NCBI GenBank assembly: GCA_003971905.1 | Contig: RSEE01000001.1 | Location: 558,001-622,000 of the forward strand | DNA from: Moniliella sp. 'wahieum' | Taxonomy: Eukaryota | Reading direction: 5' to 3' | Length of the DNA stretch: 64,000 nucleotides | Part shown: piece by piece, positions 13,435 to 64,000 of the stretch | How positions within the stretch are numbered: the stretch's first letter is position 1 | Layout: the number at the start of each line of letters is the position of its first letter | Notes under the pieces: model-generated | What the model was told of the DNA's origin: nothing | What the model saw: the letters and a program-made list of their open reading frames with translations, nothing else | The model's database searches: none | Made by a program: the position numbers and the translations under genes

Positions 13435-14719
13435 CGTGTCGATGGTTTCTCGCAAGCAGCAGGTAAACCAAAGGCATGATGTCAACCCAATCGACTGCTC
13501 TTGATTACGTCAGCAGCCTGGCCGCCTTGGAGTCTTGCCGCTTCTTCAGCTTGGTTCTGTCGGTTTAAGCTGTGTCCTCTCGGCGAAGATTGCACCACCT
13601 TCTCCTCTACCTCCACCTCCACCTCCGCTGTATTCTCGAGTACTCACTAGTCTTATTGTGCCATCTGCTCACGGTCGCTTTGATGTGCCCCTGGTCTTCC
13701 AGCATCTCGTCCGTCACATCGTACGCACGCCGGGGTGGTAGAGCCGAGAAGGTTACGCTGGCATGCTTCCTTTCTTGTGGCGTAATACCCTCACTATCTC
13801 GGTTACTGCTGGCCTACTAGATGCTTGGATCTCATCTACCACTTTGCTTCAACCATTGTACCGGAAATTATTCTCTACGTTCAAGTGCATTTCTTCTCCG
13901 CGCCCACTGGCCTTTGCACACTTTTCTAACGGGATGCATTATAAGGCCCGCTGAATTTTCTGACTGATATGAGTGCAGAGGATAATGCTTGGCTCGACGT
14001 AAGGCTAAGGTTGGGATACCACTGTCCCTGTGGGATGCAGGCGAGTTCAGCGCGGGATGCGCTTGTTGCCGGAAGCGAGACTGAGGATATGGGTGGATAA
14101 CTCCCTTATGATGACAGGAAGCTCACCCGCCTTGGCGGCTCGTAGATAAGATGGCAGGAAGTTTCGATTATGCATCATGCCGTTGCACGCATCCTGAAGT
14201 ATTTGCCACCCTTGGCCTGGAAACCGGTCATGACTGCAGCAACCGAACGCTGAGAATCACCAAGTCTTGAGTGTATTTGACAACAAGGTAGATGCCATTC
14301 TCGCCGTAGTTCTGTGTCGGCCTATTTGCGCATCTTCAATGCATTGCACGTGCTCTGCAATGTATTTGCGGAGCACTTCCTGAATCTGCTGCTGCTGGAA
14401 GTACCCCTTGATAATCAGCCAGCCCCGCCCCATCATCCTCGTTGCCAATTGTTCCCAGATCAGCGAACCGGAAGGCCTGTACATGAAGCTCATGCTGGTC
14501 ACAGTGCATGCACAGGCAAACGTATAGGCATAATTAACAAACGTATCTTCTTAGTTCCCTGGCGCCCCACCATTGGCGGGCCATCTTCTAGTTCTCTATA
14601 TCCGCAAGCAAAGGTGGGTTGTGCTCGTGCAAGGCGTGACAAAGGCCCGGTTCAAGATCAGAGAGACAAGGGTATGTTATCACGTCACGCAGGCAAACCA
14701 AGGTACTGAGCGAACGACG

Positions 14720-14936
14720 TGTTGGGACCCGTGGTCCCGTACTTAGGCCAAGGCGCCTCATCACCCTTCACCCCTGATTTGTCCTCCGAAGCCTCCACGT
14801 GTATACTCAGGCTTGTCTGAACCCCTGTCTCTAGGTGTGGCACAAGGCTTAGACCTCAACCACCACCATCGCGATTGCATTGCTCTACATTTCCAGAGGT
14901 TCTTCACCCAATCCCTTGGGTTCCTCCGGTCTTACA
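14720..14936 (+). repeat. Copia 5' LTR (217 bp)
   Basis: TGTTGGGACC...GGTCTTACA; matches 20081-20295 apart from two single-base indels. Confidence 0.97.
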
Positions 14937-14950
14937 GAGTTACAATCCTC
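14937..14950 (+). other. Primer-binding site of the Copia element, non-canonical (GAGTTACAATCCTC)
   Basis: Directly abuts the 5' LTR; lacks the TGG expected for tRNA 3'-CCA priming; 10/11 identical to the PBS of the element at 60504-63059. Confidence 0.75.
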
Positions 14951-15042
14951 TTGACGCTCAGCCCTGAGCCTTCCACTCTTACACTCTTCGGTCCTCCGCT
15001 GCCGGCCCTATCCACAAGCGCTTGCTCGAACTGCGTAAGCTA

Positions 15043-16318
15043 ATGGCAAGCATCATGAGCTCTCAGACTCAGGAGTCTTGGTTCAACTCCTCAACCCCTA
15101 CTTCACCAACTGCCGCCGCAGAGAGAGCACCACTCCCGTCGGAGTTGACCACGCCTCCCCGCCGCTGACACCATCGCGTGAATCTACCCCTACACCTCAA
15201 CCCACCCCCGTGGGCCCCGACAACACCGCGAACGACGTCGCCACCCTCGCCGACCGCATTCGCAACATGTTCAAATTGTTTCCCGAACACATCACCCTCA
15301 AACAGCTACAGGACACTGGTATCAAGCTTGGGTACAGCGAAAAGACGACCACAGAAGCCATTGTCATGTTATCATGTGAGAATCCACCCAATGCTAGCAA
15401 GACGAAGGTGCCTTATCGTCAACTCCGGCCGTCGACGACAACCCGTGGGCTTTGACTCCCGACAAGCTCCTCCGTAGTGCCACTCGCACCAACGTGCCGT
15501 ACCACGAGCGTTTCCACAACAACAGCTCGTTTTGGTTATGGACCCGGATCTTCCTCCCTCGTATCCAGATTATCCCTGGAGCGCGTGAGCATCTGGAACA
15601 GGGCAAGGCCCTGGACGGGTATAACGCAGAACTGGACGCTCACTTGGCCAACATTCTACTCCCGTGGATAGACTCCGACGTCGTCCAGCAGATCACCGGC
15701 GATGGCACGCCGGCTCTAGGGTCTGCATACTATCATGCTCTGCGTGATTTGTACGGCACCGTTTCAGACACTGAGATCTGTGATATCCTCATAAAGGTTC
15801 TCACTCTCAAAATGGGCACCAAGTCGGGCCGCCAATACCTGAATGAGTTCACTGTGGCGGTAACCCAGTACGAGATGACGTCCAAGTCCAAGCTGGACGA
15901 GATTGGTCTAGCACAGATGCTACGGAAAGGCGTTACTGATCAGGGGTGGTTGCACCTCCATCGTAACAGCAGCTACGCCGAATTGCGCCGAGCAGTGAGC
16001 GAACTCAAAGGCTCCAACTACGGCAGTACCTCCAGTTCAAGCCCAGCTCCCTCCAGTACGGCCCCTTCGGAAGCCACGTCGCACAGCCAAACAAGCAGTA
16101 CGGTGACAGGCCGCGGACGAGGCCGAGGTGGCAGCGGGTACAGAGGAAGTCACCGTGGTGGCCAACGTGGCGGCCACTTTAGCCGGCCGGCTACGACAGC
16201 CCAGACCACCTCATCTGCCCATGCAGTAACCCCTATGGCAGCCACTACACCACCCGAGTCAGCCACATCGACTGAAACGGAGTCTGTCGTGTCCACAATC
16301 CCTCCTCACCCCTACTAG
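15043..16318 (+). CDS. gag: Copia Gag (start approximate, indels), ending in TAG
   Basis: First ORF after the PBS; GSAYYHALRDLYG, YLNEF; RGG-rich C-terminal tract. Confidence 0.8.
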
Positions 16319-19300
16319 GACAGCGCGGGAGGCCCTAAGCCAGCCAACCTCCCTGCGCAACACGATTCAGGTGCGAGACCATCCGTATTCAATGAACGAA
16401 GTGCGTTTATCAATCTTCGTCCACACCGCGAGCCCATAGCAGTGGCAAACGGACAGATCGCATACACTGAAGGCATTGGCACCATCTCTATGTACATTCA
16501 AACCCAGAACGGAGCCCCTATCCGCATCCACCTACCCGGCAGCTTGTACTGCCCCACCTTCCCGACCAACCTGCTCAGCGCTTACCATCTATCTGTCGCA
16601 GGCATTGGCAGCTGGATCCCTCAGGTGGCCATGGTCTCTATCTCGGACGACACGGCGAACCTTTTCGTCTCGCCGCCGACTCAAGCTATTCCCTTACTCT
16701 GGCGCCCAATACGACAGCCACAGCCAACAGCGCCACTTCGCTACTCAACCTTGATGCAACCCTGGTCAAGGTGAAAAACGCCCACATCCGATGGAATCAT
16801 GCACCTCTAGATCAACTTTCATCCCTCACGTCGGATGACCCAGCATTCGAACGGGTCAACAGTGGCGACATCGCTTTAGTCCGGTCCTCGTGGCACTGTG
16901 CACCATGCGCATTAAGCAGAGCCACTGCCCCACCCCACGCCACGACTGGACGCCCAATCCGAACCATTCGCCCTCTTCTCTCTCCTCCACCTCGACGTCC
17001 TTGACATATCCCGCCAAGGCGGCGGGGGTCATACTTACGCCCCTTATCATTGTCGACGACTTTACGCGGTATACCTGGACGCTACCCCTGGTGTCCAAGG
17101 GTGATGCCACAGCCGAACTTCAAGCCTTCATCCGGCGCGAGCATCGCCAACATCCCGACCGCCCCCTTCAGACGGTCCGCTCTGACAATGCGCCTGAACT
17201 CACCACCGCAATGGACGAGTTTTACTGCGAGCTGGGAGTAGTGAGCGAGCGCACCAATCCTGGCGAAAGTGCGTCCAATGGGGTCGCCGAACGCGCCATA
17301 AGATCGATTACGGATCGCGCTCGACTCATGGTAATCGCCAACAGATTGACTCCCGACGAGTGGTGGGAACACAGCTTGTTGGCGGCCACATATGCACACA
17401 ACCAGTCGCCGCCGAAAGCACTGGGTGGGGACAGCCGATTTGTCCGGTACCATGGCTTCAAACCCTCCCTTCGCATGCGCGTTTTGGCACTCTTGCCTAC
17501 CTGCACCTATTGCCCAACCAACGCGAGGGCGGCAAACTTGGTCCGCGGGCCGTCCCAGCAATGTTGGTGGGTTACGGGCACGGCCGCGGTTCGAAGGGTG
17601 GCTCTTTGCCATCCACCAGGACGACGGCCAAGTTGGATTCCGTTGGAAAAAGCCGTCCACCTGGACACATGTCCCGTACACCACCGAATATCCCACGCAC
17701 TTTCATCTGAACCCCCTTGTCCCTGCTGGTGGCGGAGAGGTGCGGGGGGGCGGAGAAATGGGTGCTGGTGGGAAGTCAGACAGCTCCCCACCCCGGCGTG
17801 TGCGTTTTGCGATAGATGAACTGACCCGCGATACTAATGAGGCACATCGCCCGGCTCAAGCCAACGAAAATGAGAATTCAGAGCCTGGCCCCACTCCCAC
17901 CAACTCCAACCCCCCACATGTATCCCCCCAACCTGTTGCATCTGACCCCGCAGGCATGGCACAACGCCAGGCAAAGCAAGCCGAAGAAAATGAAACTATC
18001 ACAGAAGATGCCGTTGACACTGGCCACCAAGTCCTGCTTTCCCCTCCCTCTTCCACTTCCCCTTCCTCTCCCGCCCTATCCCCCTCCCCTCTCCCCACCG
18101 ACACGCTCGCCCCCGTGACCGTGCCCCTGACCGATACAGCCGTCCCCCACTCGTGCGTCGCAATCCCGTTCGCCAAGCGCGTATCAACGCTCCACCCCTC
18201 GACCTGTCCATTCCAGCCAACGACAATTTGCGCGATGGCACCTTTTCCCTGCTCGTCAACAAGGCCCCTAGCATCTTGGCAACCCGGCCGCCCTCTCCGC
18301 CCTAGGAATGCAGGCTTTGGTGAGTATTTTCGGACCAGCGCCGGACACATCCATGCTACCTGCTTCGGAGCCAAGCTCGCCCCCCATCGCACTCGCAATC
18401 GAATCCGCGGCAAGTGACACCGAGGTCATACTGACCACCGATGGGTCCCGGTGGCCCCCAAGAACATCAAGAAGTTGGTGGGTCACCCTGCCTTTGATGG
18501 CGTACTCGAGGCAATGCGCCTCGAGCTTCGGCGTTTTGACGAGCGTGACGTGAAGGAAGTTGTACCCATCCCCCCAGGGATCAAACCCCTTCCCGGCATG
18601 TGGGTCATAGGTACTAAGACGGATGCGGATGCTAACTTCCTCAAGTACCGTGCCCGCTACGTTGTGGGAGGGCACCGGCAAGTTCCTGGCACATGGGCGA
18701 AATCTTTTGCTCCTGCCGTTCGTACTGCTGCCGTCAACACGCTAATTGCGTTGGCCGAAGCTGATGGCCTCCACTTATTTTCTGCCGATGTGGAAGCTGC
18801 CTACCTCTATGCCGATATCAACGAGCTCGTCTATGTTCGACCACCCCCCTTCTTCCCAGAAGCGCCCGGTCATTGCTGGAGACTCAAGAAAAGTCTCTAT
18901 GGCCTGCACCAGAGCGGGGCCAACTTTGGAGATTGGCTCCGCACTTTCCTTTGCGACCGACTCCACTTCACTAGCCTAAAATCAGAGCCTGCCTGTTCAT
19001 ACGTCGCACCGAACCTCTTGGCCTGATCCTAATCGCCGTCCACACTGACGACTTTTTGGTCGCGTGTCGGTCCCAAGAAGCGTATGATGAATTCTTAGTG
19101 GAATTAAGGCGCAGCATCCAAATTAAGTCCAACGGCCCCCTACGTTTCCATCTCGGCTGCCAATACGACCGTATCGATGGACGACTGTACATCAGCCAAC
19201 CCAAATTCATCGCTGAGACGCTTGCCGCGCATGACATATCACCTCACCGGCCCCGCTACCTTCCAATCGGCCACCAACTTCCGCCTCCCAAGCGACCCGA

Positions 19301-20015
19301 ACACGAAAAGCGTGCCACTCGAGACGAGCACCGTGCCTACCGTTCTATTGTCGGATCCAGCTTGTGGGCGGCTCGTATGTCCCGGCCTGATGCCCTCTTT
19401 GCGGCTACCTTTTTAGCGCGGTTTATGGACGACCCGTCCGCCGCCCACCGACGCGCAGCGGAGGACCTATTACGTTTCTTCGCCGGTACGTCTGACTACT
19501 CTTTGTGCCTCACACCCAACCGATCTCGCCCTCTACTCGAGCTGCACACCGATGCCTCCTTTGCATCAGACAAGAGCAACTCTCACTCCGTTTCGGGCCA
19601 TGTTGTTTTTGTTTTCGGTGTGCCTGTATCCTGGGGCTCCAAGTCCCAAAATCAAGGTGTGAGCAACACAGCAGCATCTGAATACCTAGCCATGGGAGAT
19701 GGCCTTCGAGATGCTCTATTCATTCGCAACATACTGTTTGAACTTGGTGTCTGCAAGGCTAATCACCCGATTGAGCTCTTTGTTGACAACACCGCTGCCA
19801 AAGCGTTGGCCGAAAAGCTCGGCAGCCTAGGCAAAATACGGGAGATTGACGTCTCGTACCACGAGGTGCGGGAACGCATCCACCGAGGCGAAATTAAAGT
19901 CCACTACACTCCAGGTGCACACCATCTCCCTGACTGGTTCACCAAACCTCTTTCTCTTCCCAAGATCATTTCTGCGCGTAACAATTTCGATTTGGCTTCT
20001 CTTTCTTCGCGCTGA
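16319..20015 (+). CDS. pol: Copia Pol: protease, integrase, reverse transcriptase, RNase H (frameshifts probably assembly errors)
   Basis: PR HDSGA..IAVANG; IN H..WNH/CAPC, IVDDFTRYTW, VRSDNAPE, SNGVAERAIR, GKLGPRA; RT YRARYVVGG, DVEAAYL, LKKSLYGLHQSG, VHTDDF; RH HTDASFA, SEYLA, VDNTAA, DWFTKPL. Confidence 0.95.
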
Positions 20016-20080
20016 TCCCCTTTCTACTTTTCTTTTGTTGATGGCCAACGGGCTTCTTTCGTTCCCTTGGCCCGGGGGGG

Positions 20081-20295
20081 TGTTGGGACCCGTGGTCCCG
20101 TACTTAGGCCAAGGCGCCTCATCACCCTTCACCCCTGATTTGTCCTCCGAAGCCTCCACGTGTATACTCAGGCTTGTCTGAACCCCTGTCTCTAGGTGTG
20201 GCACAAGGCTTAGACCTCAACCACCACCATCGCGATTGCATTGCTCTACATTTCCAGAGGTTCTTCACCCATCCCTTGGGTTCCTCGGTCTTACA
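20081..20295 (+). repeat. Copia 3' LTR (215 bp), preceded by PPT ...GTTCCCTTGGCCCGGGGGGG
   Basis: Direct repeat of 14720-14936 followed by TSD CGACG. Confidence 0.97.
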
Positions 20296-21336
20296 CGACG
20301 GACCCATATACACGTAAGGGTACATTCCAGCGCCCTTGAGAACCTCGACTCCTTCTGCACCAGGTCAATATATATCATATTTTGTTCAATCTATGTCAAC
20401 GTTTCCTTCTTTAGCTTTTCTTCTTTTTCTTCAGTAAGTCCCGAAACAGGTCATCGGGTCCGACGGAGGGGTCGGCGTTGGATACTTTTGCGGCTCGAGG
20501 GCTGTGACATACCCATTTTGTCTGAGAGAAGTGTCGTCACCAGCTCCCTTGGTGGAAGGCAAGTGGTCGATGAGAGATAGTAACAGTTTTTGCCGTCACC
20601 TTGCTCTTGCTATTGTTTTTTCGTACCGCCAAACATGGTACCGGCTCAACATCTTTCGTCTGGCCATCGGCATCAGGTTCAGCATGTTCTGTGGCACGCT
20701 CTGTGCTCTCATGCGCGGCTCTGTGGCGCGGCAGCCTAGTTTATACTGGTAGTGGCGCTTATTTTAGTGACTCGGGAACGCGAGATACATGGGACGTGTG
20801 ACGGCATCCAACGCTTGACACGTGGGTGCCATACACATCACACTCATCACCGTCACATGCGGGGTGGGCAAGGGTGGGAAAGGGTGGGAACCGATGTTGG
20901 GGCTATTCAACGTGACGTTCAACGTCCGTTCAACGTTCAGTGCCATTTGTATTCCGCTGCTTTGAAGGCACGCCCAAAATCGAACTTTAACGTGGGGCTA
21001 GTCGGGGTTAGTGCCACTTTGCTGTGCAGCCTATGATACTGGTCTGCCATCCTTGTATCCCCACTTCCCTCCCCTCCTTTGCCGCCTTCCACCTTCGCTT
21101 CTTCCCTTTCTCTCCTCCCCTCTCCCTCCACCTCCGCCTCCATCTCCCCTCCTCCATCTCCATCCCTCCCTCCCCGCCGTGCTAATTATTATTACCCTGC
21201 CCAGAGGCCTCCGCCACACCAGCTTCCCCGAAGGCAGTGTTCTACGCCCCCCGTTTACCCCTGTACCCCCCGGCTCACCACTGACCTCCGCCCTCCCAAA
21301 AGCAGCCTGTTCTGCACCCTATAATACTTCACCACG

Positions 21337-59560: not shown

Positions 59561-60503
59561 CCTCAAGGGCCTCAAGCTTCAAGTTGAAGCTTCAAGCTTT
59601 AAGCTCCTCAAGCTCTCATCGATCTCAGATCTCTCCGAGAAGAGAGGCTGGAGCTGTAAGCGCTAAGCCTTAGCGCTAAGCCTTCTAAGCTAAGCTAAGG
59701 CTTAGCACTAACCTTCCCCCCTGCGCCGCACCCAGGGGGCAGTTCGCCCCTTGCTGCTCCACATTGTGCATTGCATAGTGCAGCTCAGTGCCTCAGTGCC
59801 TCAGCCAGCAGCTGTCCAGGCACACCGCAATTCTCACCCGATCACATGCAACACAGCTCACTCGCTCACTGCCATGCCCAGCATGCATGATAGCTGGGCC
59901 TGAGGCTCTCAAGCTCTTGAACTTCCAGTTGAAGTTGAACGTTGAATCTTTACTTCAAGCTTCAAGCCCTCCGAGGCTGACTTGAGGCACGCATGACACG
60001 CAGCATCACGTGCCCATGTCACTGTGTCACCATGCCACCCCTTCCATCGACCATCCTTCCAGCTTCACGCGCTTCACATGTCACATTGGTCCATTCTTTT
60101 CTTTCTGGGAACAGGAAATTAATTAAGGCAGTGCCCTTTTTTACCCCTTGGGTTTGACGACGCGAGGATACTATGCCACCAAGACAGCGGGCAAGATGCT
60201 TGGGAACTGGAAGGAATTGACTTCCGTCCAATGGAAATGGTTCAGTACGTTCAACGTTCACCCACCGGTCACCGCTCGGAAGTCTACTACGTTCATCTGT
60301 GTCCACACGCGCTTCTTCGCGTATGGGAACGGATGGCGGGCACCAGAGGGTCCTGATCTCCTGGCGATTCCCCTGGTTCCTTAAGCGGGATTGGGGCTAT
60401 CAAGCAGTACACGCAGGACGAACGGATCGGTTTAGGGCGCAGCGTTTCTTTGTTCCAGCCTTAAGTTCTGTCCATGATATGGCTACAGTATATTACGATG
60501 ACC

Positions 60504-63059
60504 TGTTGGCCTAGGGAGCCGGACGGGCAGAAGGATGAGGAGAAGGTGATGGATTGGAGCCAGAGTTGGGTCTGGGTACAGAGGGCATCTATATAGGAGG
60601 CTGGACTAGGCACAGGGACAGTGAGTCACACAGAGAGAGTGCAGGGCACAGGGACAGTGACACGCAGGGACGTCAGCGTGGAAGCCGATGGAACCGAGGC
60701 GAACCTGGTCTACCGACTGGGAGCCAGAGGATCACAGTCAACACCCCCGCTGGCCAGGGAACCCGGAGACATCGGTTGTGGGATGAGCTCCTGCCAGTGG
60801 ATGTAGAGAGGGGAGGACTTGAGTGGCAACCGGGACGAATGGCCTGGAGTTGTGCATGGCCACACGACTGGCCTACACCCCCGCTGTCCAGGATGACACC
60901 TGAACGAGCCGAGCGCTTGTGGTTGGTGTATTGTGCGACCGCCAGATGCTTGTAGAAGTCTTAGAAGTAAAAGTAGTAGGGGTTGCGCCCCGAAGCGATT
61001 TGGTGGGCAAAAGTAAAAAGCACCAGTTATAGGTGTAGTGAAAAAAATTGGAAACTTGGAGTAAATGCGGTCCAAGGTCGTTTGGCATCAAAATTGGATG
61101 CGTTTGGTAGTTGTTTGGTTCCGCATGCCTGGTGCCAGTGGGGTCCATTGGGCATGGGAAATGAACGGGCGCTATGCGTCAACCGTCTTGATCTGTTTGG
61201 GTTCTCTTTGTTGTTGAAAAAGAGGAGTGGAAGAAGTTGGGTGACCACCCCCCCCATCCTTTCCCCAGGTGCCCCGGATGAATTGGCAATCCGGGCGTGT
61301 AGCCGTGGGTGGGGCACTTGATGAGCAGCCACCCCCGCTTTCTGCGATTCGCCTGCGCCGTTTTGTCGTTGGAGGAATTTCGTCTCGTTGACGATACCCG
61401 ACACGTTTTGTTCCGTCGTGTGTTGTCCCTAAAAATCATTGCCCCATCTGTGGGGGACGAGTGTGCCGATTGTGGCGGTAGTATGCCGATTGTGGCGGTA
61501 GTATGCCGATTGTGGCGGTAAGGTGCCGATTGTGGCGGTGGTGTTGTTGGGCGGGAGGACGGGTGTGTCTTGTGGGCTTGGCGGCTTAGCTTGGGCTTGT
61601 AGGCTTGGGGGTGGGCTTGCTTGAAGAGCGCTCCCCTTCCGGGGGGATCAGATTGTAGCTCTGTTGGCCTAGGGAGCCGGACGGGCAGAAGGATGAGGAG
61701 AAGGTGATGGATTGGAGCCAGAGTTGGGTCTGGGTACAGAGGCATCTATATAGGAGGCTGGACTAGGCACAGGGACAGTGAGTCACACAGGAGAGAGTGC
61801 AGGGCACAGGGACAGTGACACGCAGGGACGTCAGCGTGGAAGCCGATGGAACCGAGGCGAACCTGGTCTACCGACTGGGAGCCAGAGGATCACAGTCAAC
61901 ACCCCCGCTGGCCAGGGAACCCGGAGACATCGGTTGTGGGATGAGCTCCTGCCAGTGGATGTAGAGAGGGGAGGACTTGAGTGGCAACCGGGACGAATGG
62001 CCTGGAGTTGTGCATGGCCACACGACTGGCCTACACCCCCGCTGTCCAGGATGACACCTGAACGAGCCGAGCGCTTGTGGTTGGTGTATTGTGCGACCGC
62101 CAGATGCTTGTAGAAGTCTTAGAAGTAAAAGTAGTAGGGGTTGCGCCCCGAAGCGATTTGGTGGGCAAAAGTAAAAAGCACCAGTTATAGGTGTAGTGAA
62201 AGAAAATTGGAAACTTGGAGTAAATGCGGTCCAAGGTCGTTTGGCATCAAAATTGGATGCGTTTGGTAGTTGTTTGGTTCCGCATGCCTGGTGCCAGTGG
62301 GGTCCATTGGGCATGGGAAATGAACGGGCGCTATGCGTCAACCGTCTTGATCTGTTTGGGTTCTCTTTGTTGTTGAAAAAGAGGAGTGGAAGAAGTTGGG
62401 TGACCACCCCCCCCCATCCTTTCCCCAGGTGCCCCGGATGAATTGGCAATCCGGGGCGTGTAGCCGTGGGTGGGGCACTTGATGAGCAGCCACCCCCGCT
62501 TTCTGCGATTCGCCTGCGCCGTTTTGTCGTTGGAGGAATTTCGTCTCGTTGACGATACCCGACACGTTTTGTTCCGTCGTGTGTTGTCCCTAAAAATCAT
62601 TGCCCATCTGTGGGGGACGAGTGTGCCGATTGTGGCGGTAGTATGCCGATTGTGGCGGTAGTATGCCGATTGTGGCGGTAAGGTGCCGATTGTGGCGGTG
62701 GTGTTGTTGGGCGGGGGACGGGTGTGTCTTGTGGGCTTGGCGGCTTAGCTTGGGCTTGTAGGCTTGGGGGTGGGCTTGCTTGAAGAGCGCTCCCCTTCCG
62801 GGGGGATCAGATTGTAGCTCTGTTGGCCTAGGGAGCCGGACGGGCAGAAGGATGAGGAGAAGGTGATGGATTGGAGCCAGAGTTGGGTCTGGGTACAAGG
62901 CATCTATATAGGAGGCTGGACTAGGCACAGGGACAGTGAGTCACACAGGAGAGAGTGCAGGGCACAGGGACAGTGACACGCAGGGACGTCAGCGTGGAAG
63001 CCGATGGAACCGAGGCGAACCTGGTCTACCGACTGGGAGCCAGAGGATCACAGTCAACA
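60504..63059 (-). mobile_element. Non-autonomous LTR element (TRIM-like) in tandem LTR-int-LTR-int-LTR form, TSD TGACC (60499-60503, 63060-63064)
   Basis: Three ~240-bp repeats (60504-60743, 61662-61901, 62821-63059) with TGTTG..CAACA ends; two ~918-bp internal units; PBS and PPT on the minus strand; no recognisable gag or pol. Confidence 0.9.
61461..61540. repeat. Four 20-bp repeats (GTATGCCGATTGTGGCGGTA) in TRIM internal unit 1; also at 62621-62700
   Basis: Read directly from the sequence. Confidence 0.92.
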
Positions 63060-64000
63060 TGACCCGCTGGCAAAATAACGCCTCTTTGGCTCAATGGTAA
63101 GGCGTCGCACTCGTAATGCGAAGATTAGTCGTTCGATTCGGCTAGGAGGCATTTTTTTGTGCTGTTGGCCATTGCTACCGTGGAACGGAGCACTCTTCGA
63201 CGTGCGAGAGAGCAGTGGCCGGTGACAGTTGCTTTGGCCGCGAGCGGGCAAGACCTAACGTACAGGTAGAGCGAATGGGGGAGCGGGGGTAGGAAGACAG
63301 GATGCGCAAGAGAAACAGCGTGTACAGCGTTGACTGTTTGCGTACACAGGCCTTCCGCTTCTGGGCTGCGGCAGCAGCCTACAGGCAAAAACTATCTGTC
63401 CCACCTTGTGCGTCCCCCGAAAGCTGGCCTAGACAAGCTATAATATAGCGAGGACGATAAACGATGCAGGACTTCTGGTACTGAGTCTCAGTATCCTCAG
63501 GCCTGAGGAGGTATCACACGATATATCACGAGGCCGAGGGCAGGTGATGAGGCGGTGAGGCCACGCTCGGCAGGCGGAGGAAGATGCTCAGCGGCTCAGC
63601 TGCCAGCACCTCTGTTTCAAGCATGGGACCCTGCCAGGCACCAGCCCTGCGGCCAAATGGATCGGCATGTGCCGGCACAGGGCAGTGCTCCTGCGCCAGG
63701 CCAGTACTGATGCATGATGCATGATGAGGCTCCTAGCAAGCTAGCAGGGGGCCGGTGTACGTCACTTGTGGCGTGGACCCCCGTGCGTCGCTGCGCACAC
63801 TGCTCCTGTGCTACCACAGCCCTTGGTGCGACCCGCTGCCTTCGCATTCGCACACCCTGGCTCAGCGCTCGCTCAGCCGGAGCGTACAACTCAACCGACC
63901 ACCTGAAATCGCAGCCCGTCCGCAGTCGCCACTGCCATCACCACCACTACATACACACCATCACCATCCTCTCAATTCCCCCCGAACAACTACCACCTCC

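Follow-up and report, generated by a model that had tools for sequence, protein, structure and literature searches.

The window analysed here, 64,000 nt of the forward strand of Moniliella sp. 'wahieum' (assembly GCA_003971905.1, contig RSEE01000001.1, positions 558,001–622,000), holds two LTR elements, a 5576-nt Ty1/copia element (14720–20295) and a minus-strand array of a small element (60504–63059). In both, the LTR is followed at once by a putative primer binding site that is complementary to the anticodon arm of real tRNA-Tyr(GUA) genes and lacks self-complementarity within the element. Judging from the sequences, it is moderately probable that both elements are primed by an internal piece of cytosolic tRNA-Tyr(GUA), as opposed to a 3′ CCA end, with the small element acting as a partner of the Copia lineage. 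The more specific form of this reading, in which a Ustilaginomycotina Copia lineage and its non-autonomous partner would be primed by the first 40 nt of a spliced tRNA-Tyr(GUA) whose loop in the host carries U32 and C38, has in our judgement an even chance of being correct. We infer the arm type of the host tRNA-Tyr, the cut at position 40 and the priming role itself.

The window comes from the nuclear genome of a basidiomycete near Ustilaginomycotina. Its housekeeping genes include those for glutathione synthase, RPL21e, clathrin light chain, Sgf11, SPX, a cyclin and a LIM-RhoGAP protein, and the best named relatives of the clathrin light chain, from Tilletiaria anomala (46%), Meira, Ceraceosorus, Moesziomyces, Acaromyces and Malassezia, bear out the basidiomycete host that an earlier note on this DNA had inferred. 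A single tRNA gene, for tRNA-Thr(CGU), is present in the window. Two sequencing runs match the window, both weak and both metagenomic (shares 0.17 and 0.13), and the sequencing-run search listed no RNA run.

Two LTR elements and a common motif at their LTR ends

The Copia element lies on the plus strand between two copies of the target-site duplication CGACG (14715–14719 and 20296–20300), which bound the LTRs on both sides and thereby fix the LTR end. Comparison of the 5′ LTR (217 nt, TGTTGG..CTTACA, 14720–14936) with the 3′ LTR (215 nt, 20081–20295) shows two 1-nt gaps as the sole differences, an identity of about 99%. Starting from the 5′ LTR, the putative primer binding site GAGTTACAATCCTC (14937–14950), complementary to positions 27–40 of a tRNA-Tyr(GUA) of the U32/C38 type, is followed by a coding region in several broken frames (15398–20012) and by a polypurine-like tract, GGCCCGGGGGGG (20069–20080), that adjoins the 3′ LTR. 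The coding region comprises a gag-like ORF with no match in a Pfam search, an integrase (rve, 16839–17816; 23 bits, a weak Pfam match below the cut-off) and a reverse transcriptase (RVT_2, 18418–19023 with 97 bits and 18975–20012). The TG..CA LTR ends and 5-bp target duplication required of Ty1/copia (Pseudoviridae) elements are both present, as is the required gene order with the integrase upstream of RVT_2, and the Ty1/copia assignment of the earlier note holds. The copy in the window is defective, its reading frames being broken, but the near-identity of its LTRs and the intact duplications indicate a recent transposition with the primer site in place.

The Copia lineage is rare, with 8 protein matches of which only 2 are close, both from run assemblies. 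One of these (P0001) is an intact 1210-aa relative, 97% identical, that carries PF00665 and PF07727, and a P0002-like family is 46% identical; a search of viral contigs for relatives of the reverse transcriptase found none. A 5549-nt contig from one metagenome run (X2) belongs to the same Copia family and spans most of the element; the contig on which P0001, the sole close intact relative, is recorded is also 5549 nt long. Relative to the window, the X2 contig has 102 nt of leader just after 14968 replaced by 330 other letters, and several 1-nt indels where the frames of the window copy break. The aligned piece that includes the primer site is 14829–14968; the site sits within 31 nt of its end, a zone for which differences are unlisted.

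The small element has the form LTR–internal–LTR–internal–LTR, with three LTRs of 239–240 nt (TGTTGAC..GGCCAACA). In element orientation, the 5′ LTR (239 nt, 62821–63059) leads into internal region 1 (61902–62820), which begins with the first copy of the putative primer binding site GAGCTACAATCTGA (62807–62820) and ends with the polypurine tract AGCGGGGG (61902–61909). The middle LTR (240 nt, 61662–61901) is followed by internal region 2 (60744–61661), laid out in the same way, with the second copy of the putative site at 61648–61661 and the polypurine tract at 60744–60751, and then by the 3′-most LTR (60504–60743). Both internal regions are about 918 nt long, and a Pfam search of their ORFs returned no match. 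Four tandem 20-nt units lie in each (61460–61539 and 62620–62699); read in element orientation the units contain CCACAATCGG, which resembles the primer-site core CTACAATCTG, a likeness that may be due to chance. The whole array of three LTRs and two internal regions shares one target duplication, TGACC (60499–60503 and 63060–63064). There was therefore a single insertion, and the tandem form, perhaps a product of unequal recombination, dates from that event or later.

By convention, a TRIM has a total size under about 1 kb. The small element has TRIM features, namely LTRs of 239–240 nt, a primer site and a polypurine tract, and no coding capacity, but one LTR–internal–LTR unit measures 1398 nt and exceeds that convention, so that it is more safely called 'TRIM-like' or a 'small LARD'.

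The two sites stand where the earlier note had placed them: GAGTTACAATCCTC directly 3′ of the Copia 5′ LTR with zero spacer, and GAGCTACAATCTGA directly after two of the three LTRs of the small element. As that note also reported, their first 11 nt agree at 10/11 positions and neither element has a TGG after its LTR. The pattern GAGYTACAATC has three exact matches on the two strands of the window, all of them at these LTR ends, against a mean of 0.02 in 100 dinucleotide-preserving shuffles, none of which reaches three. No site of this type occurs in 54 metagenome loci (432,616 nt), and the exact strings of LTR end plus site have 0 and 0 matches in prokaryote genome contigs. One such string does match a viral contig; the contig is without LTRs and the match was put down to chance. 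Literature searches with the motif strings gave no retroelement match, and the supplements of PMC5445492 are likewise without the motif.

The recurrence of the motif counts as one observation from one lineage. The two TRIM-like copies sit in a single tandem structure and are not independent of each other. The earlier note had called the LTRs of the two elements unrelated, which overstates their difference: LTR ends, the junction between polypurine tract and LTR, and a weak similarity of the LTRs themselves are common to both. Both elements have LTRs of the form TGTTG..ACA and 5-bp target duplications, and across the 25 nt that span polypurine tract and LTR start their identity is 88% (E 0.023, for a comparison of small size). 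Global alignment of a Copia LTR with a small-element LTR scores 134.5, against 104.5 ± 7.8 for 200 shuffles with a maximum of 125.5 (z about 3.8). Ends of the form TGTTG..ACA are described as general among Ty1-like elements (PMC4139406). There is no coding similarity between the small element and the Copia, whose comparison gave only weak low-complexity matches. Taken together, the shared sequence features make the small element a probable non-autonomous partner of the Copia lineage. Such a partner would borrow the enzymes of that lineage and would therefore retain the primer site, the polypurine tract and the LTR ends that those enzymes use; a common site is then expected and is not independent evidence.

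Proposed pairing with tRNA-Tyr(GUA)

The reverse complement of either site can be written as an anticodon arm, with pairing between positions 30–31 and 39–40, U at 33 and a purine at 37. Within the core the two sites differ just once, T in one and C in the other, and this difference falls opposite position 37. In tRNA-Tyr the purine at 37 is modified (m1G or i6A), which relaxes pairing, and 37 is the one position of the loop that can be either A or G. That the sole core difference lies at 37, with an arm-form complement in both elements, places this parse first among the possible readings, as does its register, which is that of known half-tRNA-primed Copia elements, give or take 1 nt.

Two scans looked for genes that could supply such an arm. 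The first covered viral contigs with a pattern made of the shared site core, an intron gap, CTC and a suitably spaced T-loop motif, and gave at least 120 stretches. Among the 120 viral-contig matches listed, ARAGORN calls an intron-bearing tRNA-Tyr(GUA) at the match in 71, makes no call in 37 and gives other names to 12, which proved to be shifted introns; one gene on a viral contig (L005), for example, reads ..GCGGAGGATTGTAG-intron-CTCCTC... The second scan, of metagenome contigs, was stricter and required the whole arm; it gave 54 stretches, 49 of them called tRNA-Tyr(GUA), with exons ..GCGGAGGATTGTAG / CTCCTC... Both patterns were built from the site, which forces 11/14 matching positions in general and all 14 of the 5′-side arm positions in the metagenome scan, and what the scans really show is only that intron-bearing tRNA-Tyr genes with U32, G37 and C38 exist.

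The mature arm of the matching tRNA-Tyr(GUA) is GAGGA-UUGUAGC-UCCUC, encoded on viral and metagenome contigs. The Copia 14-mer pairs with positions 27–40 of this arm through 13 Watson–Crick pairs and one G–U at position 37, and the 11-mer of the small element pairs at 11/11 with positions 30–40. The small-element site can also pair over its full 14 nt, with one G–U, when set against a second arm type seen on viral contigs, UCGGA-UUGUAGC-UCCG.. Among 382 tRNAs called by ARAGORN in the fetched loci and the window, tRNA-Tyr(GUA) alone pairs with at least 13 of the 14 positions. Two apparent competitors were discarded: an Asn(gtt) with 13 paired positions is the same Tyr gene with a shifted ARAGORN intron call, and a perfect 14/14 match, 'GAGGATTGTAACTC', is again a shifted intron call on a Tyr gene. 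Such shifts are frequent in these Tyr genes, which ARAGORN then misnames Asn, Ile, Thr, Phe or Pyl.

Pfam searches with 26 of the longest ORFs on 8 of ten longer screened matching contigs found giant-virus genes on 5/8, encoding major capsid protein, VLTF3, poly(A) polymerase or Rpb1; a fungal origin is shown for none of the eight. Genes for tRNA-Tyr(GUA) with a U32/C38 loop and introns occur on many giant-virus contigs (L001–L120 viral, L121–L174 metagenomic), often in Gln–Tyr–Asn arrays. The likeness to tRNA-Tyr(GUA) of giant viruses (NCLDV) is close, the arm being the exact complement of the sites save for the one G–U in Copia, but the genes come from lake and marine metagenomes and a link to the fungal host is not implied. 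Their presence on giant-virus contigs establishes that the arm exists in nature, not that the fungus has it. The anticodon-arm parse of the earlier note is thus matched by real intron-bearing tRNA-Tyr(GUA) genes, but by genes of giant-virus contigs and not of fungi.

Cytosolic tRNA-Tyr of yeast, animals and plants has C32 and A38, which would make two mismatches with the sites, one of them 3 nt from the 3′ end of the primer. Priming by tRNA-Tyr as proposed here therefore makes a sharp prediction, that the loop of the host tRNA-Tyr is UUGUAGC; if it holds, the host carries an unusual U32/C38 loop that was otherwise seen here only on viral and metagenome contigs. A literature search for basidiomycete nuclear tRNA-Tyr sequences returned only papers on mitochondrial genomes.

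The sequence of events that would follow can be laid out step by step. Spliced tRNA-Tyr, with the loop U32-U33-G34-U35-A36-G37-C38, would be cleaved at the 40/41 bond, on the 3′ side of the anticodon stem, leaving its first 40 nt as the primer. This 5′ fragment would anneal through positions 27–40 to the Copia site and through positions 30–40 to the small-element site, so that its 3′ end (..CUC) abuts the first base after the LTR. Reverse transcriptase would extend the primer into U5–R, the G-rich tract would prime the plus strand, and the rest would proceed as in other LTR elements. The small element would be copied in trans by reverse transcriptase and integrase of the Copia lineage. Since the pairing crosses the intron position of tRNA-Tyr (37/38), a primer of this kind must derive from the spliced tRNA.

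Other explanations for the site

The sites could instead pair with another host RNA, either a 5′ tRNA fragment that ends in the D stem (..GAUUG-UA-GCUC) or an unrelated small RNA, which we consider unlikely. For the small element there are matches of this kind: the 5′ end of a bacterial tRNA-His holds GAUUGUAGCUC, an 11/11 match to the TRIM-like site, in the probe table of PMC12907706, and in the set of 382 tRNAs the 5′ segments of Gly(UCC), Val and Ile reach 9–10/11. The Copia site fits this explanation poorly. It would put an A in place of the nearly invariant G10 of tRNAs, and the top 8 matches of the Copia 11-mer in the same set include no 5′-end match. We know of no precedent for a 13-nt primer, and Copia elements are known to use the register of the anticodon arm, as opposed to that of the D stem. 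If the small element is taken by itself, the GAUUGUAGCUC of tRNA-His leaves a D-stem origin some probability.

A second explanation stays with tRNA-Tyr and changes the form of the primer, which would be the 5′ exon that the splicing endonuclease frees from pre-tRNA-Tyr, with G37 as its last base. The site proper would then be YTACAATC.., preceded by a 3-nt spacer, GAG, that is trimmed off after copying. All tRNA-Tyr genes found have the intron directly after G37, making a 37-nt 5′ half a natural intermediate, and the 8 nt after GAG do pair with positions 30–37. Against this, in both elements the GAG that would be a mere spacer is complementary to C38-U39-C40 of the spliced arm, and the LTR ends in CA at the target duplication, which fits a primer that abuts the LTR. 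A 3-nt trim of a spacer would be unusual, and the end of a tRNA 5′ exon carries a cyclic or 2′ phosphate. We rate this variant as quite unlikely; were it true, it would link tRNA splicing to retrotransposition.

Just as unlikely, in our estimate, is a third explanation that needs no host RNA, in which the site serves self-priming or forms a hairpin (of the Tf1 or fungal GalEa type) or is a relic of common descent in two inactive elements. The two elements are indeed related and the Copia copy in the window is defective. Fungal Copia lineages without a tRNA site exist (PMC5445492), and self-priming or novel priming has been proposed for the Tcn elements of Cryptococcus (PMC7175516). The earlier note had named self-priming as a finding that would count against a tRNA primer; within the LTRs it is unsupported, since neither site has a complement in its own LTR better than 8/11 with G–U pairs counted, a level that 436/500 and 367/500 shuffles reach. 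The Tf1-type feature, about 11 nt in the LTR complementary to the site, was found in neither element. An inverted copy of the site is absent anywhere in the window, and local folds are ordinary (z −1.1 and −0.65). The 'conserved hairpin site' of GalEa consists of a palindromic 9-mer that takes in the final base of the LTR, together with a second, complementary sequence 12–41 bp downstream; the sites here are non-palindromic and show no such arrangement. As for a relic, near-identical LTRs and intact duplications point to recent transposition with the site.

Relation to known priming systems

Half-tRNA-primed Ty1/copia elements include Drosophila copia, yeast Ty5 and Volvox Osser. In copia and Ty5, the primer site is complementary to the anticodon arm of the tRNA, and the primer has its 3′ end within the 3′ strand of that arm's stem. 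Plant Copia elements are described as primed by half molecules of tRNA-Met (Bryco, Gymco-II) and of tRNA-Ile (Bianca) (PMC6317226). Among fungi, the FunCo1 Copia elements have the site ATTAAGAGTCT, assigned to an internal part of tRNA-Lys, and the study that describes them did not find FunCo1 in Basidiomycota (PMC5445492). Candida Copia elements are listed with internal tRNA-Arg(UCU) and tRNA-iMet, the Candida albicans Tca2/gamma-type being the one with tRNA-Arg(UCU) (PMC4139406).

Similar to the half-tRNA-primed Copia elements (Hemivirus in the ICTV sense), the elements in the window have a putative site that adjoins the LTR, lacks TGG and complements an anticodon arm, here that of tRNA-Tyr(GUA) genes from viral and metagenome contigs, and the primer would likewise end in the 3′ strand of the stem. 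Unlike them, the putative tRNA is Tyr(GUA), the primer is predicted to end at position 40 instead of 39, the proposed pairing spans the splice junction of an intron-bearing tRNA and the host is a Ustilaginomycotina-like basidiomycete. With FunCo1 and the Tca2/gamma-type the window Copia shares membership of a fungal Copia lineage and a site that matches an internal region of a tRNA other than iMet; it differs in the tRNA species, which is Lys in FunCo1 and Arg(UCU) in the Tca2/gamma-type, and in having few relatives. Half-tRNA priming is thus known with Met, Ile, Lys and Arg, and what would be new is the use of tRNA-Tyr for the same mechanism, a modest variant. A literature search covering main texts found no mention of tRNA-Tyr priming of retroelements, and these elements, if the proposal is right, would be the first primed by a tyrosine tRNA.

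The priming tRNA and the mode of priming are lineage markers of an LTR element and set which tRNA fragments can silence it. The tyrosine case would add a tRNA whose gene always has an intron at the place that the site spans, tying the primer to the spliced tRNA. For annotation, tools that seek only CCA-end sites would label these elements "without PBS".

The small element resembles TRIM and LARD elements in its short LTRs, its lack of coding capacity and the tandem LTR–I–LTR–I–LTR form, and in having its site, polypurine tract and LTR ends in common with an autonomous element. It differs from classic TRIMs in being larger, with a unit of about 1.4 kb and an internal region of 918 nt, and its link to a Copia partner is read from sequence features alone. 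Its surroundings recall another known system. No tRNA gene lies near the Copia copy at 14720, and the array, a single case, lies close to the tRNA-Thr(CGU) gene (63080–63151, plus strand), which is outside the small element and starts 15 nt past the TGACC duplication. From the array end (63059) to the gene is 20 nt, with the target duplication 16–20 nt upstream of the first base of the tRNA, a spacing reminiscent of Pol III-targeted elements such as Ty3.
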